Positions 25,085 to 45,741 of a stretch of DNA of 57,164 bases are shown piece by piece; the stretch's first letter is position 1; each line of letters begins with the position of its first letter. The notes beneath the pieces are model-generated. The model ran no database searches, had not been told where the DNA came from, and saw nothing but the letters and a program-made list of their open reading frames with translations. The DNA is from a virus (taxonomy: Duplodnaviria; Caudoviricetes): IMG/VR virus record IMGVR_UViG_3300004369_000017, positions 1 through 57,164 of that record; one strand, written 5' to 3'. Position numbers and translations under genes: made by a program.

Positions 25085-28000
25085 TTAAGGAATTTCTATC
25101 ATAGCACCAGAGAACCAAACTGAGCCATCTGAGACTAAAATACTATCTCCAGCGAACAGGAGAACGCCTTCGTTAGTAGTGGCAGATACAGCAGCAGTAG
25201 CTGCTGATACATTGGCAAAAGAAGGAATTCTTAGGAAGCCATTTTTATTGATAACTGCATTCCTACCAGTGCTGAACGGAGAAGCTCCCGTCTGTGCTAC
25301 CATCATATCGACAGTAGGAGCTGATTGACCATGCAACAGATTCAGTACGTTTTGATCTGTTTGAGCTGGCTTAATAGAAAGAGTGGCAGTGTCACTAAGG
25401 TCTTTGCTATCACCAATTCTTGTGTATCTGTGATCAGTTGAGTAAGCAACAATAGTGTCGTTCAGGTTAATAATATTGTTAACCAACCCGGTTTGTTTTC
25501 CAGAACCTAAGATTATATTGTTACTACCACCAATTCCACTGCCAACATTTTTACCCAAGAAGATATTATAAGCACCGCTACTAACAGCTCCAGCATCGCT
25601 ACCAATAATTATTGAGTCAGAAATATTTCCGAGTATGTCGTATGCAGCCTGATGCCCAGTAATAAAAGAGTTAGTAATTACTCTATGAACACTATTCCAA
25701 TTATTGTCATCTTTGAACGCTGCATAGTAGCCAATTACAACAGATTTGTTGATAGTATATTCTTTATCGTTTGTAAATGAGTTGTTCCAATCGTAAGAAC
25801 CAGCTCGCTTACCAAATATGATTGACCCGTCTACGTTATTTGTGTTATAACCAGCCTCTTCTCCGATGAAGATGGCGTTAACTAGATTGGAATTTACGGC
25901 TCTATTGTCGTTATTCAGAGACCTACCTTTTGCGGCAGCTCTACTACCCAAAGCCACTACGCCGGACAGAGCGTGTGGGTAAGTGGTAGAATAATAGCCC
26001 ATGTTAGAACCGGCTTCGTGGCCAATTAAGTTTGAAAGATCGGTCTTAGAGGTGTATCCTGATTTATAGCCAATAAAGTTACTATAGCCATCTCCAGACG
26101 CTCTGTATCCAGCGTTGAAGCCAATGAATAAGTTATAATCAAGATTGTTTACTTGGTATCCAGCCTGACTACCTATGCCGATAGTGTCAACAACGCCGCT
26201 GACTTGATACATAGATTGGTAACCCATAGCAATATTTCGGATTGAATTAACCGACCCTCTTAAAACGTCATACCCTAAACCGATATCGTAATCAACTCCG
26301 CTAGAACTATACATTGATCCATAACCGATAGATATGCTAGAAGAGACATCACTGCTCTGATATAAAGAGTATTGACCTAAACCTAAACTAGAAGAGACAT
26401 CACTGCTCTGATATAAAGAGTATTGACCTAAACCTAAAGATGAATTAACTTTATAACACCCTTGGCCAGCTTGCATACCAACGAACACAGTGCCAGTAGA
26501 ATAAACAGATTCCTTACCAGCAAAGTGACCAATACCAACTGTGCGATAACACTCATCAGCAAAACCCAACGCTTGATCACCAATGCCAACGCATCCGTCA
26601 TTTCCACTAGCCTGCAATCCAGCAGCCGGGCCAACAAACACTCCACCATTTGTTTCAGAAGCAGCTTGCGCAGCATTGTATCCGATAGCAACGGTTTCTG
26701 ACATATCGCCAGTAGTGCCGTTTCCAGACAACCTACCAATAAACACCCCATTAACACCATCTGTATTTGCACTCGATCCCAAACTGACAGGATCGGAAAT
26801 GCCGTAGCTACGAATGTTAGAGAAGTAACCAATGCCACTGGTATGATAAGAGCTACCGTTTACCATTAGTCCAGTACCGGCTGACAGGCTCGTACCACCC
26901 GCTGCCGCCCAACCAGAGACATCAGTGATCTGAGACTGCAAATCAGTAGTGACTGTTCCGGCCCACCCAGAGATGGCTACCCCACTAGCTGAGTTAGCTA
27001 GAATATTTGTATTGATCAAAGTGATATCAGACTGAATACTTTCAGCACTGATGATCATGTTATCATCTGCGGCGTCGTAGAAGGTATTGATACCGCTCAC
27101 ACCACTGATCGTTACAGTGTTGTTTGTGATAGTCTCGGTATTATCCAGCATGTCAGAAAGAATCCAACCATTACCAGCGTCAAAAGACACACCATCTGTG
27201 TAAGCCTTAGCGTAACCAGACACAGCGTCAATCAGCGTGTCTAGAACTTCACCAGAAGCATCAATTGTGTAAGCAGCCCATCCTGAGATAGCCACTCCAC
27301 TAGCTGAGTTAGCAAGAATGGCGTTATCATGATAAATGATGTCCAGAGTGTTGATATCAGTTTCATTTTCCAGAGCATTAAATTCACCTTGCAGGTATCC
27401 AGAGATAGCTACGCCGCTGGCTGAGTTTGCAAGAATAGCTGCTGAATTGTCATTACCAGAAACCTCTAGATTACCAATCAATACAGATGGATTAATCAAC
27501 ATTGTCTTGACAGCACCATTAGTGCTCACAGACACGCTAACGCCGCTGATACCGCTGATAGCAAGAGTATCAGCTTGAAGGATATTTGTCGTTATGGCGT
27601 CGTTTCCAGCCACCTTAAACACATCTGCGATATTAATCTCAATCCCATTGTGAATTTCAAGACCACTACCGGCATGATAAGCTCCACTGATAACTGAAGA
27701 ATCGTCAAAGATCACAGAAGGAACATCAATAGCTTGAGTACTTGTCCAAGCATCTGTAGCATCTCTCCAAGTGAACTTCTTATCAGAATCTGTAGACTTG
27801 ATCACGATACCGGCATCGTCAATTTGACTATCATCTAGAGTAGCATTACCACTCACGGAAGCTAGCTCAATCTGATGATCAGCGATTGTAACAGTTGTAC
27901 TGTCTACATATGTAAAATTGCCCTTAACATTTAATGTACCACCAACGATTACATCTCCACCAGTGATAATTTGACCACTGATTGTAGCATCACCATTAAC

Positions 28001-28945
28001 ATCAAGTTCTACTGTGGGAGTTTTCTTATTTACACCAAGATAGTTATTAGCTTTATCCCACACAAAGTATGGATCATGATCCATAACGCCACTGTCCGCC
28101 CAGAATCCTACGCCACTTTCCATACCAGAAGCTGTGTAAGCATCTGGCTCTTGGGTTAAGTACATATGAGAGAGGGAAGGGAGATCATCATCTGTGATAG
28201 CTCGAAACGACGGATAGTCGGGGGCACACGCACCAGAAGGATTGCATCCAGAAGGTGGACCAGAGAAGAATAGTCCAGCGTTTTGCTCTTGGAATTTAAT
28301 AATCTGATTAGACACACCACTTAACTCAAGCACAGCATCTGTACCAGTGGTTGCATCTAGGGCGTTTTCAGTGTACGCTGTAAGTTGGACGGCATTCGAA
28401 AAGGTTACACCAGAAGAACCAACGATCAGACCAGATACGCGAATGCTAGACTCGGTTGCTTCTCCACCAATATCAATTGTGTAAGTAGGAGCCGCATTGT
28501 TAATACCGAGGCGAGTGTTGTCTTTGTCCCAAACAACATTTGAGTCGTAATTCAGAAGTTGATTACTGCCCCAAAATGCTAAACCGCTAGCGTCTGGCTC
28601 ATCAAAACCATCAAGCCCACCCGCTGTCATCACTGCGTATTTACCGGGATATGTTACATATACTTCCTTAACTCCATTTGGGAAGTTTACGATATTATCA
28701 CTGTTAGAACTCTTGTGTGGGAATCTAGTCAGTGCATCGGTAGACCCATCCAGAATATACTGACCAGAGCCTACTTCGTAGTTAATTCCGTCAGTCACCG
28801 CATAGAATACAGCGTCGTTATATGTGTACGAATCAGCAAACGAACTAAAACCTGTAGCAGCTCCATCCAACTGAAGGTTTCCACTTCCAGTGGTGCGGCT
28901 AAGCTCTTTTACTCTGTCAGCCAGTACGATAATGTGTTCAGACAT
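25085..28945 (-). CDS. Fibre protein with Gly-rich beta-roll repeats
   Basis: 1286 aa. N-terminal 'LADRVKE..TTG.G...L.GA..GF..F' phage fibre module, three ILANSASGVAISG repeats, and many (I/V)GxxAG repeats like those of trimeric autotransporter heads. Confidence 0.75.
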   Translation of the reverse strand: MSEHIIVLADRVKELSRTTGSGNLQLDGAATGFSSFADSYTYNDAVFYAVTDGINYEVGSGQYILDGSTDALTRFPHKSSNSDNIVNFPNGVKEVYVTYPGKYAVMTAGGLDGFDEPDASGLAFWGSNQLLNYDSNVVWDKDNTRLGINNAAPTYTIDIGGEATESSIRVSGLIVGSSGVTFSNAVQLTAYTENALDATTGTDAVLELSGVSNQIIKFQEQNAGLFFSGPPSGCNPSGACAPDYPSFRAITDDDLPSLSHMYLTQEPDAYTASGMESGVGFWADSGVMDHDPYFVWDKANNYLGVNKKTPTVELDVNGDATISGQIITGGDVIVGGTLNVKGNFTYVDSTTVTIADHQIELASVSGNATLDDSQIDDAGIVIKSTDSDKKFTWRDATDAWTSTQAIDVPSVIFDDSSVISGAYHAGSGLEIHNGIEINIADVFKVAGNDAITTNILQADTLAISGISGVSVSVSTNGAVKTMLINPSVLIGNLEVSGNDNSAAILANSASGVAISGYLQGEFNALENETDINTLDIIYHDNAILANSASGVAISGWAAYTIDASGEVLDTLIDAVSGYAKAYTDGVSFDAGNGWILSDMLDNTETITNNTVTISGVSGINTFYDAADDNMIISAESIQSDITLINTNILANSASGVAISGWAGTVTTDLQSQITDVSGWAAAGGTSLSAGTGLMVNGSSYHTSGIGYFSNIRSYGISDPVSLGSSANTDGVNGVFIGRLSGNGTTGDMSETVAIGYNAAQAASETNGGVFVGPAAGLQASGNDGCVGIGDQALGFADECYRTVGIGHFAGKESVYSTGTVFVGMQAGQGCYKVNSSLGLGQYSLYQSSDVSSSLGLGQYSLYQSSDVSSSISIGYGSMYSSSGVDYDIGLGYDVLRGSVNSIRNIAMGYQSMYQVSGVVDTIGIGSQAGYQVNNLDYNLFIGFNAGYRASGDGYSNFIGYKSGYTSKTDLSNLIGHEAGSNMGYYSTTYPHALSGVVALGSRAAAKGRSLNNDNRAVNSNLVNAIFIGEEAGYNTNNVDGSIIFGKRAGSYDWNNSFTNDKEYTINKSVVIGYYAAFKDDNNWNSVHRVITNSFITGHQAAYDILGNISDSIIIGSDAGAVSSGAYNIFLGKNVGSGIGGSNNIILGSGKQTGLVNNIINLNDTIVAYSTDHRYTRIGDSKDLSDTATLSIKPAQTDQNVLNLLHGQSAPTVDMMVAQTGASPFSTGRNAVINKNGFLRIPSFANVSAATAAVSATTNEGVLLFAGDSILVSDGSVWFSGAMIEIP
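26337..26438. repeat. Perfect 51-bp tandem duplication inside the fibre gene
   Basis: 26337-26387 is identical to 26388-26438, encoding the 17-aa SSLGLGQYSLYQSSDVS unit twice. Confidence 0.95.
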
Positions 28946-28961
28946 GTATATGATCTCTCAA

Positions 28962-29879
28962 TTAGATGATTGTTACAGAGTCTGTAGTTACGCCGGGACC
29001 ATCTGAATAAACTACCAACTCATTGATCTCAGCATCTACATATTCACCAGCGTCGTTTCTAACAACGAAGGTAATGGTTTTATTTGGGTCCACACCGGAT
29101 CTTGATACGAGACCAACGGTGTTAACATCAAAGTCTTCCATGTTTCCAGAAGACGATGTTGCGTTACTGCTTCCTATAGCGATGTAGTGATCCCCAAGAA
29201 CACCAGAAGCAAACTTAATGCGGAATTTTCCAACATCTAAATCTTCGATTTCCGTCACATTATAGGCAGATCGAACACTGGGTGGGACTCCGCTTCCACC
29301 AGCATTGAAATTAATAAAGGCTTTTGCTACCCCTCTAGCGGAATTATTAACGGAACTATCTGCATACTGGAATTCTCCAGAGACAGTAATGTCCTGCCCA
29401 CCTTCTACGTTAGGAGTAAATTTCAGACCATTGTCTGTGCCAGAAGCTCCAACCCAATTACCTCCCAACTGAAGATTGCCAGTCATAGGGCGAGCACCGC
29501 TGATTGGTACGTATTGAGAGTGAGGGTCTCCATCGTCAAGATTTCCGAGTTCTCGGTGGTCGATATTTTCAACACCCAACCAAGGTTCTACCTGTCGTGA
29601 GCCGCTGTTGTTTGGAGCATTAGGGAAAAGTAGTCCAGACTCAGCGATGAATGTACCGCCATAAGGTGATCCACCGGGGTCTTGTACTTCTGCTCTAACG
29701 TCGTATGTGAAAGGTGTGTCAGTATCTGTATTTCCACTTGCTACTACAGTATTAATTGAAGCTACTACATCCTCAATATTGTGACGTACATCTTCCGCTG
29801 AAATATTACCCGCGTTATTGTCCGCAAGGTCTACTCCAATACTTGTAAGCAAATCAGCTTTTGTTTTAATTGTTGCCAT
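28962..29879 (-). CDS. Virion fibre/structural protein
   Basis: 305 aa. C-terminal 'AKAFINFN...VRSAYNVTEIEDLDVGKFRIKF' fibre-like domain. N-terminus resembles that of 33775..37995. Confidence 0.6.
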   Translation of the reverse strand: MATIKTKADLLTSIGVDLADNNAGNISAEDVRHNIEDVVASINTVVASGNTDTDTPFTYDVRAEVQDPGGSPYGGTFIAESGLLFPNAPNNSGSRQVEPWLGVENIDHRELGNLDDGDPHSQYVPISGARPMTGNLQLGGNWVGASGTDNGLKFTPNVEGGQDITVSGEFQYADSSVNNSARGVAKAFINFNAGGSGVPPSVRSAYNVTEIEDLDVGKFRIKFASGVLGDHYIAIGSSNATSSSGNMEDFDVNTVGLVSRSGVDPNKTITFVVRNDAGEYVDAEINELVVYSDGPGVTTDSVTII

Positions 29880-30385
29880 TAGTTAAACATCCCATTTCTG
29901 TGTACTACTGGTCTGTAATACTCATTCTCAGTAGCAATAGGTCCAGTGATAACCTGTCCAGCTATACTGTTTCCAGCACGATAGTCTAGCACAAGTTGTT
30001 CGTATTTGTCACACAAGTCTTTATAGTAAACCGTAAGAGTTTTAGAAACACCTCTCAGGTCGATAGCTGAAGGTCCGTCTTTGATAGAAATAGCATTTCC
30101 AGACTCGCTTCTAATCTCGCTACCTATTATCATACACGCTGTACGTAAACCAACTAGAGTAATAAAAGCGTCATCTCTAGGAGAAGTTTCAGTAGGATCG
30201 GGAGATAGAGTACCCCCCTCGATGCTTATAGTGTATATGTTGTCGAATGGGACGGTTGTTGCTGTCATTTGCGCGGCTGCAAGGATACAAGTCTCTATCC
30301 TGCTAGATGAATAGGTATAGTTATCAGAGTCTAAATCGTTAACGATAACTCTCACCATTGTTGTGATCTCACCCTGCCAAGACAT
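29879..30385 (-). CDS. Probable head-tail adaptor protein
   Basis: 168 aa. 'VRVIVNDLD...YTYS...I' N-terminus and 'ISIKDGPSAID' hairpin, as in SPP1 gp15/HK97 gp6-like adaptors. Confidence 0.6.
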   Translation of the reverse strand: MSWQGEITTMVRVIVNDLDSDNYTYSSSRIETCILAAAQMTATTVPFDNIYTISIEGGTLSPDPTETSPRDDAFITLVGLRTACMIIGSEIRSESGNAISIKDGPSAIDLRGVSKTLTVYYKDLCDKYEQLVLDYRAGNSIAGQVITGPIATENEYYRPVVHRNGMFN

Positions 30386-30386
30386 A

Positions 30387-30704
30387 TTAACCTCCCAAGT
30401 TTCTATCTACAGGAAATGTATAAACATCAGTAGCAAAGGAAGTTGATGCAGATAGCACTTTTGCTTGAAGCTTATGAACACCAACTTGTGTAATATCACC
30501 AGAAACAGTATCGTAGTACATGACTCCAGATAGAGCACTTCCATCATCTAGAGTGCTTGCCAAGTTGTACAGAAGTTCGCCACTAGGATTCTTTATGATA
30601 ATCTGTAAACCAGAAGCGGTAGTGAGATCAATACCCACACCGCTCTCCCTTACAGTTACAAGGAGTCTAGTTCCGACATCCCCTTGATGAATTTTACTGG
30701 CCAT
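30387..30704 (-). CDS. Small Ig-like virion protein (BppU N-terminal-like)
   Basis: Pattern 'IHQGD.G..L.VTV...G..IDLT......IIIKNPSG...G...Y....GD....G'. Confidence 0.55.
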   Translation of the reverse strand: MASKIHQGDVGTRLLVTVRESGVGIDLTTASGLQIIIKNPSGELLYNLASTLDDGSALSGVMYYDTVSGDITQVGVHKLQAKVLSASTSFATDVYTFPVDRNLGG

Positions 30705-30708
30705 TCTA

Positions 30709-30771
30709 TTACCTTGTTAAAGCTATACTCAGCACAGTCACTATTTCAAGATCTATTTCATAAACATTCAT
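30709..30771 (-). CDS. 20-aa microprotein (MNVYEIDLEIVTVLSIALTR)
   Basis: GGAG RBS 5 nt upstream of the ATG. Fills the gap between a late-motif site (30791-30797) and the next gene. Confidence 0.5.
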   Translation of the reverse strand: MNVYEIDLEIVTVLSIALTR

Positions 30772-30796
30772 AGCTTCTCCACTACTAGTTAATACA

Positions 30797-32602
30797 CTAT
30801 TTTCCAACAAACTTCTTGTATAAGACCAAAGCCTCTTCATCGAACACAGGCTTAAAATCATTCACCTTTTCAAAAGGCTTAAACCCTAAATAGTCCCACT
30901 TTTCTTGAAATTCCTGTTCACTTTTTAGGTCTAAAATTACACTGGTATGCCAATCAGCTCTAGCCCATCTGTAGATGTAAGAAGGGTTAGTACCTTCATA
31001 ACGAGTATACTCGCCAGCAGAACGTAGACATTTTTCCCTCATAACCTTGTCTCCGTTAATGTTTAGAACGGACTCGTAACCATTAACATCTTTCCACAGT
31101 TCTATTGAGTAAGCCCAAGTAGCATGAAATCTGCCACTACAATTCTCCTTTACAACATCGCCCATTGTCTGTCCGTAATTACTATAGGCAAAACTAGGAG
31201 CAAAAAACTGTTTCTCACCAGATTTTCTGGACTTAGCGATTGAACTGATATGCCACGGAAGATATATGTCATCATCTTCCCACACACAGATAATATCCGT
31301 TTCTGGATTTCTTAATTCTGCAATAGCGTTAAATTTACCCCACAGGTTACCAACTCTGTCTGTAGTGCTTACAAGTTTCCAGTTTTCACCAGTGCAAGAG
31401 TTCACCTGACCAGCGTCGTCAAGTATGATCAGCTCACACCTATCTTTAGGATAATCTTGTTCCTCAAAGCATTTAACAGCCGCAGCCATGTGCTTGGGTC
31501 TTTTATAAGTAGGGCAAATACAAGTGATGAATGAGGGTTTGCTTTTAACCGAGACTTTGGTTTCCTTGGTTTTATAGATATCTTTAGCTTCAACTACTAG
31601 TTTATCCCACTCTTCCATAGAGAAATGATGTTCATCTACGAAGTGTCTGCGGATTTCGTCTAGTGGTTTTTCCAACTCGGTGAATTCAAGAATGTAGTTA
31701 CGTACTTTATTATGCATGGTCAGTGGGTATTTAACGCCATCCGGCCTGTGGAATCTATGCATCCATTTTAAGAACGGAAGACATATAGCATGTCGACCAT
31801 TTTTTCTATATTTTTCATGTATATACCCCTCTTCACCGCCAAAGCCAACAGCGTGTTTATTAAAACCAAGCCACTGATCTTTTTTAACAAAGAACAGTCC
31901 TAATCCTTGAGAGAAGATTTCAAAAGGTTTTTTAGTATCATGAGATGTAACGTAAGATTGTTTATGTAGAACCGACTCATGTCCATAGTAAGAAATATCT
32001 CTTATTGAAGATTTACATTTTGGGCACTCGTAGTAAATATCTTGAGAAGCAGTATCTCTCATCTCGCATGTGTTATTAGTGTTTTTTTCTACAGAGAATT
32101 TGAAGTCTCCACACTTGCAATCCCAAGAAGTTCTCCATTGTCCCCACATTTGTGAAGACCATTCGTCGTTAAAATGTGTGCTTTCACCAGCGAAGTTATC
32201 ATATACTAGAGGTCCACTATACAGATTTTTAGCGTCAGGGTTTTCTTTTATGAATGTAATTAGTTTGTCTAATGTTTCCACAACGGGACAGAGTAAAACG
32301 TGACAATCCATTACTAACACATATTTACCATTAGCGTTTTCCACCACCGCGTTTCTAGAGGCAGACGTGCCTTGTGTGTCTCTGTGGTGAGTTATTCTCA
32401 CGTCCTTCATATCTCGTGAGAAATTCTGTAGACTGGTTCTATGAAGATTGTCTTTATCAGGACTATTGTCCACGATCAAAAACTCAATCTCGTTCATTAA
32501 ATCTTGTCTATTATTATAAACAAGCTCTTTTCTTATATCTTGAATTGTAAAATAGGCTCCGTCAAAATCATTACAGTGAGCCATTCCTATTGTTAATAAC
32601 AT
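30797..32602 (-). CDS. Two-domain family 2 (GT-A) glycosyltransferase
   Basis: Domain 1: 'EFLIVDN...SASRNAVVENANGKYVLVMDCH...FGGEEG'. Domain 2: 'ITCICPTYKRP...ELIILDD...ICVWEDDDIYLPWHI'. Confidence 0.9.
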   Translation of the reverse strand: MLLTIGMAHCNDFDGAYFTIQDIRKELVYNNRQDLMNEIEFLIVDNSPDKDNLHRTSLQNFSRDMKDVRITHHRDTQGTSASRNAVVENANGKYVLVMDCHVLLCPVVETLDKLITFIKENPDAKNLYSGPLVYDNFAGESTHFNDEWSSQMWGQWRTSWDCKCGDFKFSVEKNTNNTCEMRDTASQDIYYECPKCKSSIRDISYYGHESVLHKQSYVTSHDTKKPFEIFSQGLGLFFVKKDQWLGFNKHAVGFGGEEGYIHEKYRKNGRHAICLPFLKWMHRFHRPDGVKYPLTMHNKVRNYILEFTELEKPLDEIRRHFVDEHHFSMEEWDKLVVEAKDIYKTKETKVSVKSKPSFITCICPTYKRPKHMAAAVKCFEEQDYPKDRCELIILDDAGQVNSCTGENWKLVSTTDRVGNLWGKFNAIAELRNPETDIICVWEDDDIYLPWHISSIAKSRKSGEKQFFAPSFAYSNYGQTMGDVVKENCSGRFHATWAYSIELWKDVNGYESVLNINGDKVMREKCLRSAGEYTRYEGTNPSYIYRWARADWHTSVILDLKSEQEFQEKWDYLGFKPFEKVNDFKPVFDEEALVLYKKFVGK

Positions 32603-32628
32603 ATGTTTCCTTTTCCTAAAACGATAAA

Positions 32629-33765
32629 TTATGGTGGGAAATCACTATTAGAAGACCCGGCTGGTCTACATGGGTTTGAATTATAATTACTATTTCCACT
32701 CCACGTTCCGTCACATATGTATCCATACGTATCGTTTTGATCATAGCAGCCACCATTGTTAGTTCTACCCGGACCTAAACATTTTTCACATTGTAGATTA
32801 GTATATCCTAGAGATAAACAGCGATCATACGGAGACTGTGTGGTGGTTGTAGTGGTTGGGTCTAGTGTTGTCGTTGTTGTAGAAGTAGTAGTTGTGGGTG
32901 GAACTGTACCTGTTGTGGGTGGAACTGTACCTGTTGTTGGTATAGAAGTAGTAGTCGTTGTTGTGGCCGTGGTTGGCCCGGCAGTAGTCGTTGTTGTTGG
33001 CCCGGCAGTAGTTGTAGTCGTGGTTGTTGGCCCGGCAGTAGTCGTGGTTGTGGTGGTTGGCTCGGCAGTAGTCGTTGTAGTAGATGAAGTTCCAGTTGTA
33101 GGTGGTTGCGTCGTAGTCGTAGTCGTTGTTGTTGTGGTAGTTGTAGTCGTTGTTGTGGTAGTTGTGGTTGTAGTAGTAGTATGTCCATGTAAACATTCTA
33201 TCCAATAGTTTTCCTCAAAATTACTATGTTGGCCAGTCGCCTCATTAGAAAATCCATATTCTTGTACAAAGTCAGTACACTCTATGTCAAAATTAGCGTC
33301 ATCGCAGTCGCATCCAGTCATAGAAAATAGAGCACAGCCATATAGATTTTTAAAAGTCTGCCAAGTAGCAAACCCACAATTTGGAGCTTCTCCGAAAGTG
33401 CTTACAAATAAATCTTCGCATACTTCATATGAACATGATTGCCCAACATGAAATTCGCCACCTAGCTCCTCACAGTACTCAAATATCATAAAATCGATAC
33501 AAGCTCTCTCTCCATTCCAAGATAAACAACAAGAGCCTCCCGGTTGTGAAGTAGTGGTAGTAGTTGCACATACACGCCAGTCAATAGTCTGACAAGTTTC
33601 ACCAGAATGCCAAGTCCCGCCAGAGTTTAAACAATCCTGCTGATTTAACTCAAAACAGCTCTGGCTCACACAGCAAGCCGCCGTAGGAGGTGGAGTTGTG
33701 GTAGTTGTTGTCGTTGTGGACGTGGTTGTACATACACAAGAGCAGTTGTCTGGTGGGCGACCCAT
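32629..33765 (-). CDS. Mucin-like Thr/Pro-rich protein with Cys-rich modules
   Basis: GGAG RBS. Long poly-Thr tracts encoded by mixed ACN codons, TTTAGP and TTGTVPP repeats, and two 'CC...C...C...GG.(W/F)H.G..C' modules. Confidence 0.75.
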   Translation of the reverse strand: MGRPPDNCSCVCTTTSTTTTTTTTPPPTAACCVSQSCFELNQQDCLNSGGTWHSGETCQTIDWRVCATTTTTSQPGGSCCLSWNGERACIDFMIFEYCEELGGEFHVGQSCSYEVCEDLFVSTFGEAPNCGFATWQTFKNLYGCALFSMTGCDCDDANFDIECTDFVQEYGFSNEATGQHSNFEENYWIECLHGHTTTTTTTTTTTTTTTTTTTTTTTTQPPTTGTSSTTTTTAEPTTTTTTTAGPTTTTTTTAGPTTTTTAGPTTATTTTTTSIPTTGTVPPTTGTVPPTTTTSTTTTTLDPTTTTTTQSPYDRCLSLGYTNLQCEKCLGPGRTNNGGCYDQNDTYGYICDGTWSGNSNYNSNPCRPAGSSNSDFPP

Positions 33766-33774
33766 CGTAGCTCC

Positions 33775-36700
33775 TTATGAACAGCCAATCCAAGTTGGTC
33801 TATAAGTGCCGTTAATCAACGTGGCGTTGTAATAAGCACCGTTTGGAACAGAAAGAGTGTGATCTCTATTCACTAGATATACAGTTGCTATATCGCCCCA
33901 ATCACTATTCTTAACCGTAGCAATACCAGAAGTCATACCGCCTTCTGAAGGAGCTGCAATAGCCGCTGAATACCCCTCGATAAATATAGGCAATCCTTTA
34001 GCATAGTAGCCCTCGCAGGTAACTTCGGCAACTTTTACATCATCGCAGTACCAAGTTTGAACTGGAACGATTCCAGAATGCCCTTCTATTGTACTGTCTT
34101 TACGAACAGAAAGAGGGGCATCTGGCGTAAGAACTGCATCTCCGATAGATAATCTACGTAATCCAGCATCTCCAGCAAGAACATTGTTTATATTGATCTT
34201 ATTAGCAGCTCCGGGGCTGTTATACAGCAGTCTTTGATTGTCAAGTAATCCAGCGACTATTTCAATATTATTCTCACCAGTCTCTGTGACACCGTCACCT
34301 CGTAATGCGTGCTCACCAATACCAATAGAATTGTTATAGCTAGAGTCTAGACCAGCACTTGATCCAATGAATATAGAGTCGGAAGCTGCCGCTGCGTTTT
34401 TACCAGCATTGCTACCAATAAACGTTGCGTTCTCCAGATTGTCAGCGTTGTAACCAGCTCTATATCCAATGAATGTAGAAGAGGTGTCAGTAGCTAAGCC
34501 TACGTTTGGAGTAGTTGCGTTTTTACCAGCCTCAGATCCAATCATTACTGAATGTTTCCATCCAGTAGCTGAAGCTCCAGTATCACATCCGATAAATACA
34601 GATGAGTCATTTTGACCCACTAACACGTTAGCACTGGTAAATACGTGATTACAATTGTCAGATACGGATGCGTACCCACTGGCCACTAGGCTTGATAACG
34701 TATTGATACTAACTCTACCAACAGGAGAATTCGCACCACTTGCAGTACCCAAAGCGAGGTAGCTATTAGCTGTATCAATACTGCCAACTATTTCAGTGGA
34801 ATCAATAAGATCACTAAAATCGAGATGCATGTAAGACGTACCGTCTACATCTTCTCTTCTAATGCCAGTACCGGCAGCAAAAGTTGCTCCGAGAGTAGAA
34901 CCAAGAGTAGTGCCGTCAGAAAATAAAATGTCTCCAACTAACCGCAGATCGCCTCTTAGTTCGGCATAGGGTCTAGCGACATCAGGTTCTTCCCAAGTGA
35001 CACCAGTATTCATAGGAATAGCGTCATATGAGAAGGACATTAATGTTCCAGCATAGCCACTCGCGTTAGCAAAATCAATACTGAATCCAGCATTGATGTT
35101 GCCACCAAATTCAGTAGTTCCAATGCCAGATTCGTCATCTCTTATTTGTAGAGTAGAAAACCTCTTATTATCTGTCTTGCCAATAAATTTATCGGTAGAC
35201 TGGTAAGTACGAAGGGATGTGGTCTGGTAGGAATGCTTAACGTCAAACTTGTCTGTATTAACCCAAAGTTTTCTGCTGTCAGCGTTAGGGCCAAGAACAC
35301 CTTCCATTAGAGGGATTTGCCCATTGCCAATCAAGAAGCTATAATCAGATACGTTTCCAGACTCTTTAAGGCAGTTGCCGATGATAATAGAGTCAGAGAT
35401 TGATGAAGTGCCGCTTTTTAAAGTCCTAGCACCAATCAATACGTTTCTACTACCATGAGCGACGTTCTTAGCTGTCTCGTTACCAAGGATGGTGTTTTTG
35501 GTTACAGTAGTGCCGGACACTTCCATATTCTCGCCAGCATAACTACCAACGAAAACGTTTTCAGTTGAAGCGGATATATTCTGACCAGCATAGTACCCCA
35601 AAGCGGTATTGTCATCTCCAATCCCCAAGTCTTTAAGAGCTGAGTGGCCTAATGAAGTATTTCGTCCAGCCGATCCTGAAACAGGTCTCGTGGCAGGAGA
35701 GTCAATACCACCATGAGTGTTGCCATTAGCGTCGACATACAATAGAGAATCATCGCTGTTCTGATTAACAGGAATGCGGAATTCGTTACCAGTGCCGTCT
35801 CTAAAATACAGAGCTTCAGTCTGCATATAGCCAGTATGTGGTTTCACATAAATCTTACCATACTCATTGGTTGAAGATGCAGAATCTGTTTGAGACTTAA
35901 GCGATATTGTTCCGCTTAAACTGCCTTGGTAGTTTACAGTAAGTGGAGCGTTAGCGTCGAATCTTCGTACATAGTTATGATGTGTTACACCGATGCCTAT
36001 GAAACCGTTATCGTTTACAGAAATAGCCCCCTGAGCCGCTCCATTTGAACCTGAAGACCTCAGCACAGAAACGTCAAACATCTCAGTAGATGGGCTGTAA
36101 GTCAGCTCCGCTCCAGAAGCTCTCATATTCCCATTACCGAGAATCTGAACTTTTGAAGGTGTTAAGGATCGACTGGAAAATCTAACTTCAGAGTTGCTAG
36201 CAGCTTGAACATTGAAGATAGTGGCTGGAATATGCGTGAAAGATCCACTTGGTATGTTAGTAATACCCACCAACCCACTATCGTATTTACGCATAACAAC
36301 AAGAGCGTCAGTGTTGTTAGAACTATTAGTGTCGTGAGACTTTAAAACGAATCTATCGAGAGACTGAGTACCGCTTGTCTGGTTGGTGTCTACATAATTG
36401 TTAGAAAAACCAATAAGATATCCAGATCCGTTAGTATCAACAAGCATTCTGTTTGCAACTACACTGCCGCGAGTTCGGCTATACGAGCCTACTCCAACGT
36501 CGCCGCTATTGACTACGTTAAAGGAATCATTATACTGAGATAATGCAAAATTCTCTGGGGCAGAGTAAGTATGTTGTTCACCACCCCTAATAAACACACC
36601 ATAGCAACCGCTCTGGCTAACCATAGAAAGATTTTTGGTCGCCAATACTCTATCGGTTTGAATGTGTCGCCCAGAATCAACTTCAATACTAATGTTAGAA

Positions 36701-37995
36701 AACCATCGAGAACGGGAATAGTGACTGTCTTCTTCAAGGCAGGTTAACTCCTGATTAGGGAACTTGTAGATAAATCTGTAATCACGTTGATAATCACTGC
36801 CACTTGAATGCACTTCAAAACCGGCTCCATCTAGTGCTTCATCACTAAGATATCCACATACAGAGCTAGTAATGAGACCGCCAGATGGGTCGCAGAATCC
36901 ACTTGTGGCAAGATGCAACGTCTTGCAATCATACAGGCACTCATTAATAGTGTTGTATTGTAAGTCGTTTATTGTGGCATTTCCACTCACGACAAGGTCA
37001 TTAAAGAAACCGTCCCACATCAATTCTGGAGTACCAATCTTATAGATACTGTCAGAACCGGGAACAATGTTTCCAGCGACTGTCATAAGTCCCTGACCGG
37101 ATGGAACAGCACCCAACCCAAATCTACCATTTCCATCTAGGTATAGTACAGTATTGTGGGTGTATTGGTTGGGATACTGCTCCTGATCGCGTGGTGTGTA
37201 ATATCCGAAAGTCATGCCGCTAGCACTGTGATAAGAGATGCCGCTCATTACGGCAAAAGAATCCCAAGACCTTTGGGCGTTACCTACGGAGCCAACACCG
37301 TTTATTGAAGGTGTGACATCTCCACCAACTTGTACGGTTCCGAAATCGTGTAGAACAGAAGTGGCAACTCCTAGTTGCAACTCTTTCAAATCACCATAGA
37401 GCAGTGGGCTTCTGTAAGTAGAAAAATCGTCACTGCAAATACTGTCAGAATCAACTTCATGAACGCCTACGAACAGTTTATAGCTATTAGCGGACAGGTT
37501 GGTTGGGTAATTGTCAATGTAATAACCAGCTCCATGACCAATAGCAATATTGAAATCACCATCTTTGTTAGACTGAAGAGAATGGTTACCAAGCCCTGTA
37601 TTTCCAGAACCTCTAATGTTACCTGCTAAAGCTCTAAAACCAACTGCTAGATTTTGGCTACCATAGATATTGCAGCTAAGAGCGTTAGAGCCAACGGCGG
37701 TATTCTTGAGACCAGTGAAGTTAGACCCCAAAGAGTTGTAACCAACCGACGTACTATCAGAGCTGCTATACCCCGGATTAGAAATTTTACCTAAAGCTTT
37801 CAGGCCAACAGACGTATTTCTATCTTCAGGAGAAGACAGATTGTCTGTGTCTATCGCCCCATTTAATAGTAGATGCAAAGAGTCTGCTGTGGCAAAGAAA
37901 GCAGAGCGAAGGTCTGCTGGAGAAATCTCTTGAGTAGCGTTATCCGGCAATAAAGATTGGATGTACGTTATGTACTCACTGCTGTCGTAAACCAT
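33775..37995 (-). CDS. Large fibre protein
   Basis: 1406 aa with three blocks of 'NT(A/S)(V/L)GxxAL' and 'FIGxxAG' beta-roll repeats. Confidence 0.75.
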   Translation of the reverse strand: MVYDSSEYITYIQSLLPDNATQEISPADLRSAFFATADSLHLLLNGAIDTDNLSSPEDRNTSVGLKALGKISNPGYSSSDSTSVGYNSLGSNFTGLKNTAVGSNALSCNIYGSQNLAVGFRALAGNIRGSGNTGLGNHSLQSNKDGDFNIAIGHGAGYYIDNYPTNLSANSYKLFVGVHEVDSDSICSDDFSTYRSPLLYGDLKELQLGVATSVLHDFGTVQVGGDVTPSINGVGSVGNAQRSWDSFAVMSGISYHSASGMTFGYYTPRDQEQYPNQYTHNTVLYLDGNGRFGLGAVPSGQGLMTVAGNIVPGSDSIYKIGTPELMWDGFFNDLVVSGNATINDLQYNTINECLYDCKTLHLATSGFCDPSGGLITSSVCGYLSDEALDGAGFEVHSSGSDYQRDYRFIYKFPNQELTCLEEDSHYSRSRWFSNISIEVDSGRHIQTDRVLATKNLSMVSQSGCYGVFIRGGEQHTYSAPENFALSQYNDSFNVVNSGDVGVGSYSRTRGSVVANRMLVDTNGSGYLIGFSNNYVDTNQTSGTQSLDRFVLKSHDTNSSNNTDALVVMRKYDSGLVGITNIPSGSFTHIPATIFNVQAASNSEVRFSSRSLTPSKVQILGNGNMRASGAELTYSPSTEMFDVSVLRSSGSNGAAQGAISVNDNGFIGIGVTHHNYVRRFDANAPLTVNYQGSLSGTISLKSQTDSASSTNEYGKIYVKPHTGYMQTEALYFRDGTGNEFRIPVNQNSDDSLLYVDANGNTHGGIDSPATRPVSGSAGRNTSLGHSALKDLGIGDDNTALGYYAGQNISASTENVFVGSYAGENMEVSGTTVTKNTILGNETAKNVAHGSRNVLIGARTLKSGTSSISDSIIIGNCLKESGNVSDYSFLIGNGQIPLMEGVLGPNADSRKLWVNTDKFDVKHSYQTTSLRTYQSTDKFIGKTDNKRFSTLQIRDDESGIGTTEFGGNINAGFSIDFANASGYAGTLMSFSYDAIPMNTGVTWEEPDVARPYAELRGDLRLVGDILFSDGTTLGSTLGATFAAGTGIRREDVDGTSYMHLDFSDLIDSTEIVGSIDTANSYLALGTASGANSPVGRVSINTLSSLVASGYASVSDNCNHVFTSANVLVGQNDSSVFIGCDTGASATGWKHSVMIGSEAGKNATTPNVGLATDTSSTFIGYRAGYNADNLENATFIGSNAGKNAAAASDSIFIGSSAGLDSSYNNSIGIGEHALRGDGVTETGENNIEIVAGLLDNQRLLYNSPGAANKININNVLAGDAGLRRLSIGDAVLTPDAPLSVRKDSTIEGHSGIVPVQTWYCDDVKVAEVTCEGYYAKGLPIFIEGYSAAIAAPSEGGMTSGIATVKNSDWGDIATVYLVNRDHTLSVPNGAYYNATLINGTYRPTWIGCS

Positions 37996-38006
37996 TCTCT
38001 ATTCCC

Positions 38007-38450
38007 TTATTTAAATGTAATACTAAGGGCGTCGTCGTTGATGCGAGGACCGTCTCCAGTATACATAATTCGTGGGTTAGTAAGTTGAGCGTAGAAAAGT
38101 AAGTTACCAGAACCGTGAGCTGAATTGTCTAAAATAGCAATTCCAGAAACCCATCCCCAATCTAATAGAGCGGTGCCGAAAGTAACGTTACCATCAATAG
38201 AAGCTACTCCAGACAGTTCTACCCATCGAGAATCACCACTGGTAGCGGGGTCATCTAGAGAAACTCTAGCGTAACCAGTTCCTGAACCATTAATAGTCAG
38301 GGGGATTTCAGGGATAGTGCTACCATCATCTGAATCCTGTGGAACCCCACTTGTAAGAGCTATAGCGATCTCGCCTGGCTTACTGAACTCATCCCCCATG
38401 AGAATGTGTTTCGCAAGTGCAGATTCGAGATAGTTGGACATTTTTGACAT
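38007..38450 (-). CDS. Conserved small virion structural protein
   Basis: 'MSNYLE.AL...IAL...P.D...G...YARV...F.TA..DWG.V..IAI.D...GNLL' pattern typical of phage minor structural proteins. CAGGAG RBS. Confidence 0.65.
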   Translation of the reverse strand: MSKMSNYLESALAKHILMGDEFSKPGEIAIALTSGVPQDSDDGSTIPEIPLTINGSGTGYARVSLDDPATSGDSRWVELSGVASIDGNVTFGTALLDWGWVSGIAILDNSAHGSGNLLFYAQLTNPRIMYTGDGPRINDDALSITFK

Positions 38451-38494
38451 ATGTATCTCCTGAAAAAACCGTAGTCCTGCTGGATTGTGCTACC

Positions 38495-38510
38495 CTATTA
38501 TACACAAAAA
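38495..38510 (-). promoter_or_regulatory. Putative late promoter motif TTTTTGTGTATAAT
   Basis: Shares the T-tract of the capsid gene terminator and lies about 50 bp upstream of the next gene. Confidence 0.6.
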
Positions 38511-38544
38511 AAGAGCCGCCTCCAGAACTCTGAAGACGACTCTT
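38506..38544 (-). terminator. Intrinsic terminator after the major capsid gene
   Basis: Minus-strand RNA AAGAGUCGUCUUCAG-AGUU-CUGGAGGCGGCUCUU followed by UUUUU. Three G-U pairs form only on this strand. Confidence 0.85.
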
Positions 38545-38562
38545 TCTTATGATTCAACCGGC

Positions 38563-39573
38563 TTAGAATGAGCCGATGATAATACGACGGTTGTCAAGAA
38601 CGCCGAATCCCATTTCGGCCCAGCCGTAAAAACCAACACGTTGCTGGCGATGCATAGCAGGGTCTTCGAAGATTTCAACTTCTTGCTTCACTGGCATAAC
38701 GAATGCGTCAGTAGACGATTGATCAAGACCAACTACAATTTCAGCATCGTTGGTTTGAACGTCTCCGTCCAGACCTTCTGAAGATTCGTAGAATGTTTGA
38801 TACTCTTGACCTTCGCCAAGCTCATCCAAGTCATGCAGGTTAACACCAAAGATACGTGTAATTGGAGCACCATTCTCAGGAGCATTGTAAATGCTAACAC
38901 GAACAGCATCTGGAACTTGATCCAGACCCCAGTTACGTACATCTTCCAGAGCTTCTGGAGAAACATACAAGTCAGTCAGGCGGCCACGATTAGATGATCC
39001 AGTGTTACCACCAGAGTTACGTCGCATGACTGTCTGCATAAGAGAAACTAGTCTTTTAGTGAACATTCCTTCTGGAGCTACACCGTCGAAAACAACAATG
39101 TTGCGGTCTACAGCAGACGCTAGAAGCGTGTGCCAACCACTATCATTAATCTTCTTGGTGAAACCAGCTTCCATAACCTGCATAGCACGTGCAGCGATAT
39201 CCCAACGGGCTTCTCGTGCATATCGAAGCAGATAGTCAATAGATGAAGCAATCCCGAAGGTTGGAATCATCACGTAACCAGACTCGACGCTACGCTCAGG
39301 AATTCGACCATGCCCCGGATTGGTGTAAGCGACGTGCTCACCCTCAAGTCCCGGAGGAATCAAGTCGAGTGGATATTCTGTAGAGCCACCCGGCTCAACA
39401 GTAAAGGTTTCGAAAATATTACCGAGAATGTCACCAACCAGAACGCCTTTACGTAGCGGCAATTCAAGAGCTTTGGCAAATTCTCTTTGAGCTGCTTGTG
39501 CAACTCCCAAATCTTGACTACCCGACTTACGAAGCATGTCAATAAAACTTTCATCAGGTCTTTTAAGAGCCAT
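38563..39573 (-). CDS. Major capsid protein (HK97-like fold inferred)
   Basis: 336 aa with a strong AAGGAG RBS, after protease/scaffold and decoration genes and followed by a terminator. C-terminal 'GFYGWAEMGFGVLD' is capsid-like. Confidence 0.85.
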   Translation of the reverse strand: MALKRPDESFIDMLRKSGSQDLGVAQAAQREFAKALELPLRKGVLVGDILGNIFETFTVEPGGSTEYPLDLIPPGLEGEHVAYTNPGHGRIPERSVESGYVMIPTFGIASSIDYLLRYAREARWDIAARAMQVMEAGFTKKINDSGWHTLLASAVDRNIVVFDGVAPEGMFTKRLVSLMQTVMRRNSGGNTGSSNRGRLTDLYVSPEALEDVRNWGLDQVPDAVRVSIYNAPENGAPITRIFGVNLHDLDELGEGQEYQTFYESSEGLDGDVQTNDAEIVVGLDQSSTDAFVMPVKQEVEIFEDPAMHRQQRVGFYGWAEMGFGVLDNRRIIIGSF

Positions 39574-39598
39574 TATGTATTCTCCTTATCTTTCTTGA

Positions 39599-40078
39599 TT
39601 ACTGAGGCAGGTTAACAGACACTTTGGCGTAGCCGTCAGCGTCTTTGTTAGTGTCGAAACGACCAACACGAAGGTTACCAGATGCTTCAGCATCATCGGC
39701 GGTGTTCGTTAGGTTTCCAGCAGTTGCTGAGTCGGCGTATGCTGGGTCACCCGGAGCTGGAGTACCAGTAATCTTGTTGGTAACAACATAGCCTTCTGTT
39801 AGAATTGTAACCTTACCATTCAGAGGTACTTCATTCTTGTAGATGTCCAAATGGGTCTGGGTTTGATCTTTGTCAACAACATCGTTAAGAAGGATTCCTC
39901 GAACAACGTCAGAAGGAGTCGCTTGCTTATATTTCACTTTGTTAGCGGCTTGGTCCATTGCTGCACCAGAAGCGTTTACGTTGTCAAGAACAACAACACC
40001 GCCTCTTGTAACTGCTCCAGCACTGTAAAAGTGGCTAATATCAGTTGCCTTTTCGTATCTATCTGCTTTTAGAGCCAT
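39599..40078 (-). CDS. Capsid decoration/cement protein
   Basis: 159 aa between the scaffold and capsid genes, with a strong RBS. Small-residue beta-tulip-like pattern ('GIL...V.....G.V.I...G.V'). Confidence 0.7.
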   Translation of the reverse strand: MALKADRYEKATDISHFYSAGAVTRGGVVVLDNVNASGAAMDQAANKVKYKQATPSDVVRGILLNDVVDKDQTQTHLDIYKNEVPLNGKVTILTEGYVVTNKITGTPAPGDPAYADSATAGNLTNTADDAEASGNLRVGRFDTNKDADGYAKVSVNLPQ

Positions 40079-43752: not shown

Positions 43753-45741
43753 TTAATCGTAAATACCTTCCATTGCCTCAGTAAACCAAGATGGCCCTGT
43801 GTAGTTACAAAGGTCTTCTACTCCCGGCATTGTCTCTGATCCAGCAAAACCGCCATAGAATTCATAGTCCGCAACATCTGGCGTTCTTTCCATTACTCTA
43901 GCAGCCATGTTTGCCATGATAAGAGCTGAATAACGGTCCTTTCTCATACGATCCTTCTTGCCGACAGCAACTACCGTTTCAGGCACATCCCACCTATCTC
44001 GTCCAGCGACAGTTTGAGTCATTTGAATGATGGATAGCTCATCCTTTAAATCTTCTATCTCCATAAAGCATTCTTCCAAAGTGTCATACATGCGGCCTTT
44101 GAATGAGTCTTCAACATTAGACAAGCCAAAGGACACGCCGTCAAATGCTGGGAATAATGTGGTTCTATCTTCAAAGTCTTTTCTTAAGCCGTGATTTGCT
44201 TCTGCTAGCCAGTCTGCTTTTGCAAATTGGCATAACTCAAGAATATGAAGACCTTTGTTTCCATCTGTATCCTTTTCTTTATCTAGATCAATAGTAGGCC
44301 AAATTGGAAGTTCTCCCTCTTTTATCTTATCTTGATCATGCAGAGCCTCTGATACAGCAATGCCGCCCCCCTGTGCATCCATAGCTATATGAACACATGG
44401 AAACCTTTGCATTAAATCACGTATCTTACGAGCACAGTACGAATAAAAATCAGTCTCGCTTACATACCCCTTCTTAACACGGTCTTTGTGTTCTGACCTA
44501 TTAGTCGTCCAACAGTGAACTATACGTCTATGATCAGAATTTACTTCAATAATTACGATACTGAAATTGTCAACTTCAGAAGCTGGGTCGATACCAAAAA
44601 CATATTTTTTCTCACTATGGCCAATAAGCTTTGGGTTGAACATGATGATTTCACCATTGCTGTCTAAGATAGGGTCTTCTTCGTTACAGACACAAGACTC
44701 AATCAATGATCTCTTAAAGAACCCTTGAGAATCTCTTGTAAATGTAGCCCCATATTCCATCTGGTAAATTCCTGAGTGAACAGTGGCCTTAGATCGAGCA
44801 ACCTGTGCCGCGTCCATAAATCCTTCTGGAAGGAGTTCGTAAGGGATTCGAATAATAGAGTACTCATTCCACTTGAAGTCTTTTGGAACCTCTTCTCCAC
44901 CGAAAATCTCCTGTAATCTGTCTGGATGCCCACCACTTCTAATAAACGACTTCCATCGTTTCCAGTACGTAGCAAAGTGATTGAAGTCATAGTAAGCGGT
45001 TCCAGAAAGTATAATTTGATTATGTTTAGCTCCTACAGAGTTGTCTGTATCCTGCTCAATGATAATTCCCATTTCTTTAGCTTTTTTCTGAGCCGCAATC
45101 CTTTTCACGTTTCCAATAGGATCAGCACTGACAGCCGCAAAACCAGCAACAACAGTTTCAAAAATATCTCTGGGAATAGAAGCAAACTCGTCACTGATAA
45201 TATCATTGGCACGTTGACCACGAATTTTTTGACCATCACCTAATGGTAAACAGGTAACTCTACTTTCGTTGATTCTTAGAACGCATCTGTCCATTTCCCG
45301 ACGTGGACCACTATTTTCACTGCACATACTTCTGAGCATAGGAGCATTATTCCACACTGTTTCCATATACTCAAACAGCACTTTAGACTGACGGAAAGCA
45401 GCTCCAACAATAACCACCTTACGCTTTGGGAGTATCAAGGCTCTAAGGATAGCATACAAAGCCAGCATGAATGACTTACCAAAACCACGAGAGGCAATCA
45501 ACATAGGAAAACGCCTATTCCACATCTCATGCAAAATCACCGCTTGAGAAGGAAGAATCTGAATATTCAAGACGTGCTTACATAAAAAAGAGAAATACTC
45601 AGGGCGAGTCATTAGGTAAATGAGCTTTAAGTGATATTCAGAGTCGTCAGCTTTGATAATACTTGTAGGGTTGAATAGCTCTTTATCTTGAAAATCTATA
45701 CCAAGCCAAGCATCTTCTATTGATTTTAGTTCTAAGCTCAT
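43753..45741 (-). CDS. terL: Terminase large subunit
   Basis: Walker A 'ASRGFGKS', Walker B 'RGQRANDIISDEF', RNase H-like 'FGIDPA' and C-terminal 'KDRYSA'. Confidence 0.95.
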   Translation of the reverse strand: MSLELKSIEDAWLGIDFQDKELFNPTSIIKADDSEYHLKLIYLMTRPEYFSFLCKHVLNIQILPSQAVILHEMWNRRFPMLIASRGFGKSFMLALYAILRALILPKRKVVIVGAAFRQSKVLFEYMETVWNNAPMLRSMCSENSGPRREMDRCVLRINESRVTCLPLGDGQKIRGQRANDIISDEFASIPRDIFETVVAGFAAVSADPIGNVKRIAAQKKAKEMGIIIEQDTDNSVGAKHNQIILSGTAYYDFNHFATYWKRWKSFIRSGGHPDRLQEIFGGEEVPKDFKWNEYSIIRIPYELLPEGFMDAAQVARSKATVHSGIYQMEYGATFTRDSQGFFKRSLIESCVCNEEDPILDSNGEIIMFNPKLIGHSEKKYVFGIDPASEVDNFSIVIIEVNSDHRRIVHCWTTNRSEHKDRVKKGYVSETDFYSYCARKIRDLMQRFPCVHIAMDAQGGGIAVSEALHDQDKIKEGELPIWPTIDLDKEKDTDGNKGLHILELCQFAKADWLAEANHGLRKDFEDRTTLFPAFDGVSFGLSNVEDSFKGRMYDTLEECFMEIEDLKDELSIIQMTQTVAGRDRWDVPETVVAVGKKDRMRKDRYSALIMANMAARVMERTPDVADYEFYGGFAGSETMPGVEDLCNYTGPSWFTEAMEGIYD

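Follow-up and report, generated by a model that had tools for sequence, protein, structure and literature searches.

Excess of Ser-Gly dipeptides in the outer virion proteins of an uncultured phage clade: structural turns or sites of sugar attachment

Ser-Gly (SG) dipeptides are the xylosylation sites of animal proteoglycans, where they have acidic flanks. The T4 gp5/gp12 triple beta-helix and the adenovirus shaft consist of glycine-containing repeats of about 8-15 residues, which build trimeric fibres. Freeman et al. are said to have described virion glycosylation in mycobacteriophages in 2023. An excerpt of a further source says that a cluster-F1 mycobacteriophage glycosylates its capsid (PMC11256854). 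Among bacterial surface proteins, TibA is heptosylated by TibC on Ser-313 (followed by G-G) and Ser-322 and not on threonine, and the enzymes of TibC/AAH type are GT-B heptosyltransferases, both statements being taken from an excerpt of the source (PMC4358343). Here the SG dipeptides are analysed in the proteins encoded by a 57,164-base stretch of tailed phage DNA (the window), which is the entire viral record IMGVR_UViG_3300004369_000017 and has an estimated completeness of about 34%. A first-pass annotation of this DNA had proposed that its outer virion proteins are rich in SG and that the serines are glycosylated by enzymes of the phage itself. The SG excess in the outer tail, fibre and decoration proteins is real and amounts to two to four times the composition expectation. 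It is a protein-level motif that is conserved, restricted to the outer proteins of the virion and particular to part of a single phage clade.

Each protein was compared with 1000 shuffles of its own sequence, and figures are given below as SG / GS / expected. Five proteins are clearly enriched, all at p 0.008 or less: the 105-amino-acid (aa) protein (5 / 1 / 1.2, p 0.001), the 147-aa Gp80-family fibre subunit (6 / 3 / 2.0, p 0.008), the 305-aa small fibre (10 / 4 / 3.3, p<0.001), the 1286-aa fibre (42 / 20 / 18.2, z 6.5) and the 3711-aa giant tail protein (77 / 35 / 31.9, z 8.8), which is the biggest carrier of the signal. The 1406-aa fibre is marginally enriched (28 / 21 / 19.3, p 0.017), and the 159-aa cement protein has two SG and no GS, with 0.6 expected. 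The 662-aa terminase (4 / 1 / 2.7, not significant), the 2050-aa tape measure protein (18/12/17.3), the portal and the enzymes are not enriched, the 601-aa glycosyltransferase (GT) is not SG-rich (3/0/2.0), and the presumed 336-aa capsid protein (4/4/2.1) has no SG skew. The counts by eye in the first-pass annotation (5, 6 and 10 in the three small proteins and about 4 in the terminase) proved exact. Its statement that both fibres and the giant protein hold dozens of SG stands, with the qualification that the 28 of the 1406-aa fibre are only a weak enrichment. The giant protein was correctly included as SG-rich, although its gene (1891-13026) lies beyond 25085..40078, where the observation had been placed.

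Pooled, the five clear proteins (5,554 aa) contain 140 SG against 56.8 expected (z 12.5) and 63 GS against 56.6 expected, and the proposed comparison of SG with GS and with composition therefore comes out in favour of an excess over both. SG ranks first of all 400 dipeptides in this pool, the runner-up being GV (z 4.9). The usual turn pairs NG (26/39.0, observed/expected), DG (32/38.5) and TG (27/37.5) are not in excess, and a generic beta-turn signature was rejected for this reason. The remaining 24 proteins (7,523 aa) have 43 SG against 36.8 expected. When nine outer proteins are pooled the figures are 178 SG, 88 GS and 79.8 expected; for the other 22 proteins they are 51, 37 and 50.5.

Serine codons in SG are AGY in 44% and TCN in 56% of cases, and other serines use AGY in 31%. 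Hexamers that could code for SG occur 140 times in frame and 15 and 35 times in the other two frames. Since both codon families of serine contribute and the other frames carry no signal, the selection is at the protein level, and an origin in a DNA motif or codon pair is ruled out. As for homology or long repeats within the enriched set, BLASTP among window proteins (E 1e-3) returned no pairwise similarity and no long internal repeats, a level at which remote homology is not excluded. The SG spacing in the giant protein is aperiodic. Short repeats in the 1286-aa fibre do hold some of its SGs, and a 'SASGVAISG[YW]' stretch occurs there three times.

Cultured relatives were found neither by a capsid protein search nor by megablast of the DNA. 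The terminase matches 48 records, with 23-27% identity among the 25 matches listed. A relative of the presumed capsid protein is encoded on 358 stretches of viral metagenome contigs, of which 80 (75-91% identical) were retained and are called the 80 related loci below. Two relatives are longer: G001, which is complete (172,984 bases), and G002 (122,518 bases). Across the 80 related loci the observed/expected ratio (O/E) of SG is 2.83 in Gp80-like proteins (GS 1.04), 1.96 in 82 open reading frames (ORFs) homologous to the 1406-aa fibre (SG 1537, GS 758, expected 784.5; GS O/E 0.97), 1.99 in 80 cement proteins (SG 163, GS 83, expected 81.8; GS O/E 1.01) and 1.81 in 1286-like fibres (GS 0.97). 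The 80 presumed capsid homologues are at 0.99 (SG 167, GS 219, expected 168.2), and the portal is at 0.45, the 485-aa protein at 0.99 and the dehydratase at 0.51. The 108 ORFs of these loci that lack a window homologue are at 1.02. Separately, GS is scarce in the terminase homologues of 55 loci (17 against 127.3 expected).

In G001 and G002 the tail, fibre and decoration ORFs have an SG O/E of 2.15 and 2.20, against 1.18 and 1.01 in non-structural ORFs. Their giant-protein homologues, at about 38% identity, carry the same skew (90/26/33.1 in G001 and 90/30/31.6 in G002). Two large proteins adjoining the giant gene in relatives are at 0.53 and 0.67. In the window, the 560-aa protein next to this gene (209-1891, minus strand) has no SG against 5.2 expected, compared with 8 in its G001 homologue and 9 in that of G002. 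The excess extends to the wider Gp80 family, in which 150 representatives, 29-65% identical to the query, have SG 560, GS 297 and 267.8 expected (O/E 2.09); the ratio drops from 2.95 to 1.75 as sequences diverge from the query.

The sequence context of SG is weak yet consistent across three genomes, with I/V at -3, A/P/V at -1, V/I after the glycine and F/M next. It holds about 0.15-0.2 bits per position over 792 sites and gives a strand-like pattern, [IV]-x-[APV]-S-G-[VI]-[FM], in which D at -3 occurs at 0.4x. D/E within +-4 residues make up 9.4% against a background of 12.1%. When eight orthologous families were aligned across the window, G001 and G002, the glycine of SG was retained in 71% (vs 64%). 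An alignment of the 305-aa fibre family, made up of the window sequence and 81 picked from 120 listed, has SG 754, GS 291 and 276 expected. SG48, SG81 and SG225 recur in 80-81 of its 82 sequences, and at sites 127 and 146 glycine occurs in 82/82. Three sites in 59 aligned Gp80-like sequences have glycine in 55-57 and serine in 23-31. Glycine is invariant at three of the five SG sites when the 105-aa protein is compared with two relatives, the serine being replaced by C, D, T or A, and elsewhere the glycine is fixed and the serine before it gives way to N, T, A, D or E.

AlphaFold2 (AF2) models of two proteins were read as secondary structure only. In the 305-aa model (pLDDT 79.1) SG48 stands directly after helix 28-47, SG167 and SG261 terminate strands 162-167 and 253-261, and the remaining SGs lie in loops. 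Foldseek gave weak matches of this model to the phiAB6 tailspike in the anchor (E 1.5e-3, TM 0.28/0.17) and to the BclA C-terminal domain in the jelly roll (E 4e-2, TMt 0.34); PDB sequence searches with the protein returned no match. In the 147-aa Gp80-like model (pLDDT 95.7) SG80-81 is a two-residue hairpin loop, SG34 comes after a strand and SG114 before one. The "SG turns" of the first-pass annotation are thus present across the two models as helix caps, strand ends, a hairpin and loops; two further SGs of the Gp80-like model lie inside a helix and mid-strand.

We tentatively favour the reading that SG is a structural turn or corner motif in tail, fibre and decoration proteins that are exposed and rich in beta structure. 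With a small hydroxyl residue before the glycine, the pair would close a helix or strand and begin a tight turn, and the serine would be kept for local hydrogen bonding or packing rather than for modification. In the fibre shafts of relatives SG would form the corner of a 10-11-residue repeat, and the spread of the motif through the lineage would reflect shared building principles of outer proteins. This reading is favoured over glycosylation because SG occupies glycine-turn positions, the glycine is often the better conserved residue, SG is the corner of a fibre repeat, and the link with a glycosyltransferase dissolves under phylogeny.

The repeat is visible in the fibres of relatives. SG spacing in 101 unique clade fibres peaks at 5, 7, 10-11, 14-15 and 18 residues. 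One relative fibre of 1418 aa has 75 SG (GS 11, expected 20.1) in long runs spaced 10-11 residues apart. The shafts in L148:1522-5778 and in 101 related fibre ORFs are made of 10-11-residue units, each beginning with SG, and two unit types alternate, 'SGWA...' and 'SG[VL]DGL...'. Sequence searches with the repeat segment found no match in Pfam or PDB.

Several results weigh against a structural role. The six SGs of the Gp80-like model are in six settings, including a bridge, the inside of a short helix and a mid-strand position, and therefore no single structural motif explains SG. In the eight aligned families the serine of SG is retained in 560 of 965 comparisons (58%), against 35% for other serines and only 20% for the N of NG. 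The excess is common to proteins without BLASTP similarity, yet it is missing in homologues from sister lineages. G004, of the same clade, has no SG in its Gp80-like protein, and its fibre module is at about 1.0 throughout (14/15/12.5, 8/13/9.0, 5/9/5.1 and 13/16/13.2 in its fibres), this SG-poor lineage being known from fragments only. The 305-aa homologue of L020 retains one of the window's ten SG sites. Beta-rich fibres can also do without an SG skew, since those of four other phages lack it: 13 baseplate and fibre proteins of T4 sum to SG 57, GS 59 and 54.4 expected, and the fibres give 50/45/43.6 in Pelagibacter phage HTVC023P, 36/44/30.0 in Methylophilales phage Venkman and 26/24/19.4 in Azospirillum phage Cd. 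An SG skew as a generic property of phage fibres was rejected on these counts. Varied local structures, a conserved serine, spread over dissimilar families and SG-poor sisters are what would be expected from a factor acting in trans, which keeps the idea of a glycan coat alive.

In that second reading, which is possible but on the whole unlikely, the SG serines would be O-glycosylation acceptors for the phage glycosyltransferases, giving a glycan coat on tail, fibres and decoration proteins. The first-pass annotation was right that such enzymes are encoded: a two-domain GT2 protein lies in the fibre module, and a GT8-like protein and a GDP-mannose 4,6-dehydratase are found elsewhere in the window. 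Residues 35-133 of the 601-aa GT match Pfam PF00535 (54.8 bits against a cut-off of 23.3); the second domain, at residues ~360-480, scores below the cut-off (18.8 bits) and is similar to PglI in PDB (E 1.9e-5). The metal-site triplet of the GT reads D-C-H rather than DxD; it is invariant in 6/6 aligned homologues and falls at the DxD position of GT2 enzymes with solved structures. DxH triplets are typical of polypeptide GalNAc-transferases, which makes this a lead only, and no such PDB match appeared. A profile of the protein against PDB gave only weak generic GT2 matches (E 0.36-0.88), and an Atlas search returned viral GT2 clusters.

Glycosylation would account for an excess that is limited to outer virion proteins and runs across families without BLASTP similarity. 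It would also account for the serine specificity, as TG is depleted in the outer proteins of G001 and G002 (O/E 0.74 and 0.63) against 1.14-1.47 in their non-structural proteins, and for the retention of the serine, which reaches 75% where the glycine is retained. Lineages vary as a set: over 97 unique loci the SG O/E of Gp80-like proteins and of fibres is correlated (rho 0.48, uncorrected for phylogeny). TibC, which modifies serines and not threonines in the beta-helix of TibA, provides a precedent. A literature search found nothing relevant on Ser-Gly as a bacterial O-glycosylation acceptor or on glycosylated phage tail fibres.

Homologues of the fibre-module GT occur in 56 viral loci, and 51 of the 55 analysed belong to the clade. 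The fibres flanking them have an SG O/E of 2.06 upstream and 2.12 downstream. The fibre median is 2.27 in loci with the GT (n 43) against 1.43 in those without it within 10 kb (n 12; Mann-Whitney p 4e-4, uncorrected for phylogeny). When gene families were compared with the SG level of 21 fully flanked loci, the GT ranked first, yet with only 4/10 SG-high loci against 0/6, and no other family tracked the SG level. The GDP-mannose dehydratase was rejected as a discriminator of SG level, its homologue being present in 21/21 related loci with enough upstream DNA.

The association does not hold up on a tree (p-distance neighbour-joining, capsid and cement proteins, 43 unique loci), where GT presence changes about twice. 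The GT-less pair L068/L028 (1.58, 1.41) is close to a sister clade that has the GT (1.46-2.23), and the GT-less loci L055, L059 and L081 reach 2.0-2.2. The complete G001 lacks the fibre-module GT and is SG-rich all the same. Four loci of another phage group carry a GT homologue, and their large neighbours have no SG skew. No GT was found in nine further records searched whole, all nine being fragments. The co-occurrence of SG and glycosyltransferases, which the first-pass annotation had put forward as a check, is thus present in the raw figures and fails on the tree, and a dependence of the SG excess on this GT is not upheld. ORFs adjoining the GT in L152:8461-9972 and L124:5816-9919 have Hint/intein-like domains; Pfam found nothing apart from Hint domains in the adjoining ORFs, and the ORF in that position is consistently not SG-rich.

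G001 has other sugar genes. A glycan gene set of ~30 kb (about 17-50 kb of G001; L084-L086) was found when 117 ORFs were scanned and includes GT8, three GT1 and GT2_4 proteins, together with a UDP-galactopyranose mutase, three epimerase/dehydratases, a nucleotidyltransferase, four methyltransferases and a Stf0 sulfotransferase; G001 has the dehydratase as well. Beyond the GTs of the window, G001 thus adds at least six proteins with GT domains, alongside numerous enzymes of sugar-nucleotide metabolism. The glycan gene set favours glycosylation, but the substrate of the glycosyltransferases could instead be DNA or the host surface. G001 encodes, in other parts of its genome, a thymidylate-synthase-like protein, a dNMP kinase and a dCMP deaminase, a combination that could be compatible with sugar-modified DNA, which partial sources give as a known use of phage glycosyltransferases. 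Support for glycosylated serines is circumstantial and derived from sequence. Against it, there is no enrichment in the presumed capsid protein, and in the cluster-F1 mycobacteriophage Che8 the capsid and tail-tube proteins terminate in G-S rather than S-G. The glycine of SG is often more conserved than the serine, SG is part of a periodic fibre repeat, and acidic residues are less frequent around SG than overall. The only GT families that Pfam scans reported for 36 window proteins and the 117 G001 ORFs were GT2, GT8 and GT1; neither GT14 nor a heptosyltransferase family was among them. A fuller version, slightly more doubtful than glycosylation as such, is that an abundant uncultured aquatic clade with genomes of ~170 kb hyper-O-glycosylates a minimal Ser-Gly sequon with its own glycosyltransferases. 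With its sites on turns of the giant tail protein, the fibres and the decoration proteins, it would place hundreds of glycans on each virion, with a shaft site every 10-11 residues, and the SG-poor sisters would have left this regime.

Durability or elemental cost is an improbable explanation. No peptide bonds are more labile than those of Asn-Gly and Asp-Gly, and serine would replace Asn, Asp and Thr before Gly in long-lived extracellular proteins; in an alternative form of the argument, serine costs less nitrogen than asparagine. NG is indeed depleted in the outer proteins of G001 and G002 (O/E 0.83 and 0.68) against 1.24 and 1.02 in the non-structural ones, and it is scarce in the 305-aa family (133 against 254 expected) and in the G001 tape measure (75773-84355 of G001; 1 against 12.1). 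However, the SG surplus in the outer proteins of G001 (+168) is far above the summed deficits of NG, TG and GG (about -75), and DG is not depleted (1.04 and 1.08). The aquatic phages HTVC023P and Venkman have no SG skew, and SG-poor sister lineages exist in the same clade.

Slightly less probable still, another factor acting in trans may target the serines, or the serines may shield against it; it could be a different serine modification or a host factor that recognises the motif on the virion surface. The compartment-wide, lineage-specific pattern fits this as it fits glycosylation and points to no specific enzyme, and the candidate enzymes seen are limited to glycosyltransferases, methyltransferases and a single sulfotransferase. 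That the skew arose by chance or from composition, DNA motifs or repeats has next to no probability and is already refuted: some SGs of the 1286-aa fibre do lie in short repeats, but the skew persists after within-protein shuffling, uses both serine codon families without an off-frame signal, is aperiodic in the giant protein, involves no repeats detected by BLASTP and recurs in relatives at about 38% identity.

The long genes of the window are nearly all on the minus strand and form one late module (Table 1). Window proteins with family matches are the terminase, a ClpP-like protease, the cement protein, the Gp80-family fibre subunit, the fibres, the 105-aa protein, the tape measure and the giant protein. 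The N-terminal ~100-180 residues of the 1286-aa fibre are similar to tail-fibre N-termini in eight phage records; the protein has no Pfam or PDB match, a Pfam scan of the fibres found none, and a search for related loci using this N-terminus found none. In the stretches 46349-47159 and 49252-49779 (minus strand), an ERCC4-type nuclease and an HNH endonuclease adjoin the protease and terminase, and sigma-70 region 2 is matched by a 175-aa protein. No tRNA genes were found in the window. On the plus strand, four small paralogous ORFs of 48-60 aa are scattered over the short-gene region (53010-56710); they have a conserved G-W and a core of 'R-D-G-F-E' type and are 24-48% identical to the first. 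A 72-aa ORF (54625-54843, plus strand) contains a tandem duplication of ~17 residues, 'THIDDILTA.EKAAREF', in two copies.

Table 1. Positions of the window genes discussed in the text
Feature	Length (aa)	Coordinates	Strand	Remark
Giant tail protein	3711	1891..13026	-	FG-GAP repeat near C-terminus
Tape measure protein	2050	13029..19181	-	Family match; internal control
Fibre protein	1286	25085..28945	-	phrog_6002 virion structural protein
Small fibre	305	28962..29879	-	N-terminal helical anchor and C-terminal jelly-roll head (AF2 model)
105-aa protein	105	30387..30704	-	
Glycosyltransferase, two GT2-type domains	601	30797..32602	-	Pfam PF00535; flanked by same-strand fibre genes
Fibre protein	1406	33775..37995	-	
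Chain-like fibre subunit (Gp80 family)	147	38007..38450	-	Pfam PF23140
Presumed major capsid protein	336	38563..39573	-	Gene order only, without family match
Capsid cement protein	159	39599..40078	-	Pfam PF22758
Presumed portal	717	41597..43750		Gene order only, without family match
Large terminase	662	43753..45741	-	Family match; control of the first-pass annotation
GDP-mannose 4,6-dehydratase	370	47353..48465	-	Pfam PF16363, E 9.5e-106
GT8-like glycosyltransferase	261	51751..52536	+	Pfam PF01501, 32.4 bits against cut-off 24.3

The observation is stronger than the first-pass annotation could know, and the choice between structural turns and sugar attachment stays open. If the serines are glycosylated, SG would be a sequon for phage virion glycosylation that can be read from sequence in a widespread environmental clade (358 contigs by capsid protein), and a use would be suggested for the large glycan gene sets of big aquatic phages. 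If the motif is structural, it would represent an undescribed SG-cornered fibre repeat of 10-11 residues and a lineage-specific turn-capping rule, and would caution against taking a dipeptide excess as a modification site. Either way, a natural comparison between SG-rich and SG-poor sister lineages is there to be exploited.

Among the described systems, the closest by homology is Gp80 of Ralstonia phage GP4 (PDB 8jou). The 147-aa protein is a member of its family (Pfam PF23140, E 2.4e-20, 73.6 bits against a cut-off of 27), and its model matches 8jou_a (GP4 fibre I) in Foldseek (E 8e-7, TM 0.78/0.84). One of the six SG sites is common to the two proteins in a pairwise alignment. With the fibre shafts of T4 and adenovirus the relatives' fibres share short glycine repeats; they differ in having SG every 10-11 residues without a Pfam or PDB match, and the T4 fibre proteins have no SG skew. 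In mycobacteriophages, glycosyltransferases encoded by the phage are proposed or reported to modify virion proteins, and this phage too encodes such enzymes (the 601-aa GT2 and the 261-aa GT8-like protein). The capsid is named as the target there, whereas the presumed capsid protein here lacks the skew.

Proteoglycan sites share the bare Ser-Gly dipeptide with the phage proteins. The analogy to their xylosylation, drawn in the first-pass annotation, fails both on context, as acidic residues are scarcer rather than more frequent around the phage SG, and on enzyme, as no GT14-type protein was reported in the Pfam scans. In the hyper-heptosylation of autotransporters (TibC/AAH acting on TibA/AIDA-I), serines and not threonines are modified in turns of a repetitive, beta-rich surface protein. 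The phage proteins would run parallel to this if their serines were modified: SG is enriched, TG is depleted and SG lies in turns, as far as sequences and models tell. They differ in that the window, about a third of a genome by the completeness estimate, and the G001 ORFs gave GT families other than heptosyltransferases. By analogy, autotransporter hyper-heptosylation may be a closer working model for these proteins than the proteoglycans.

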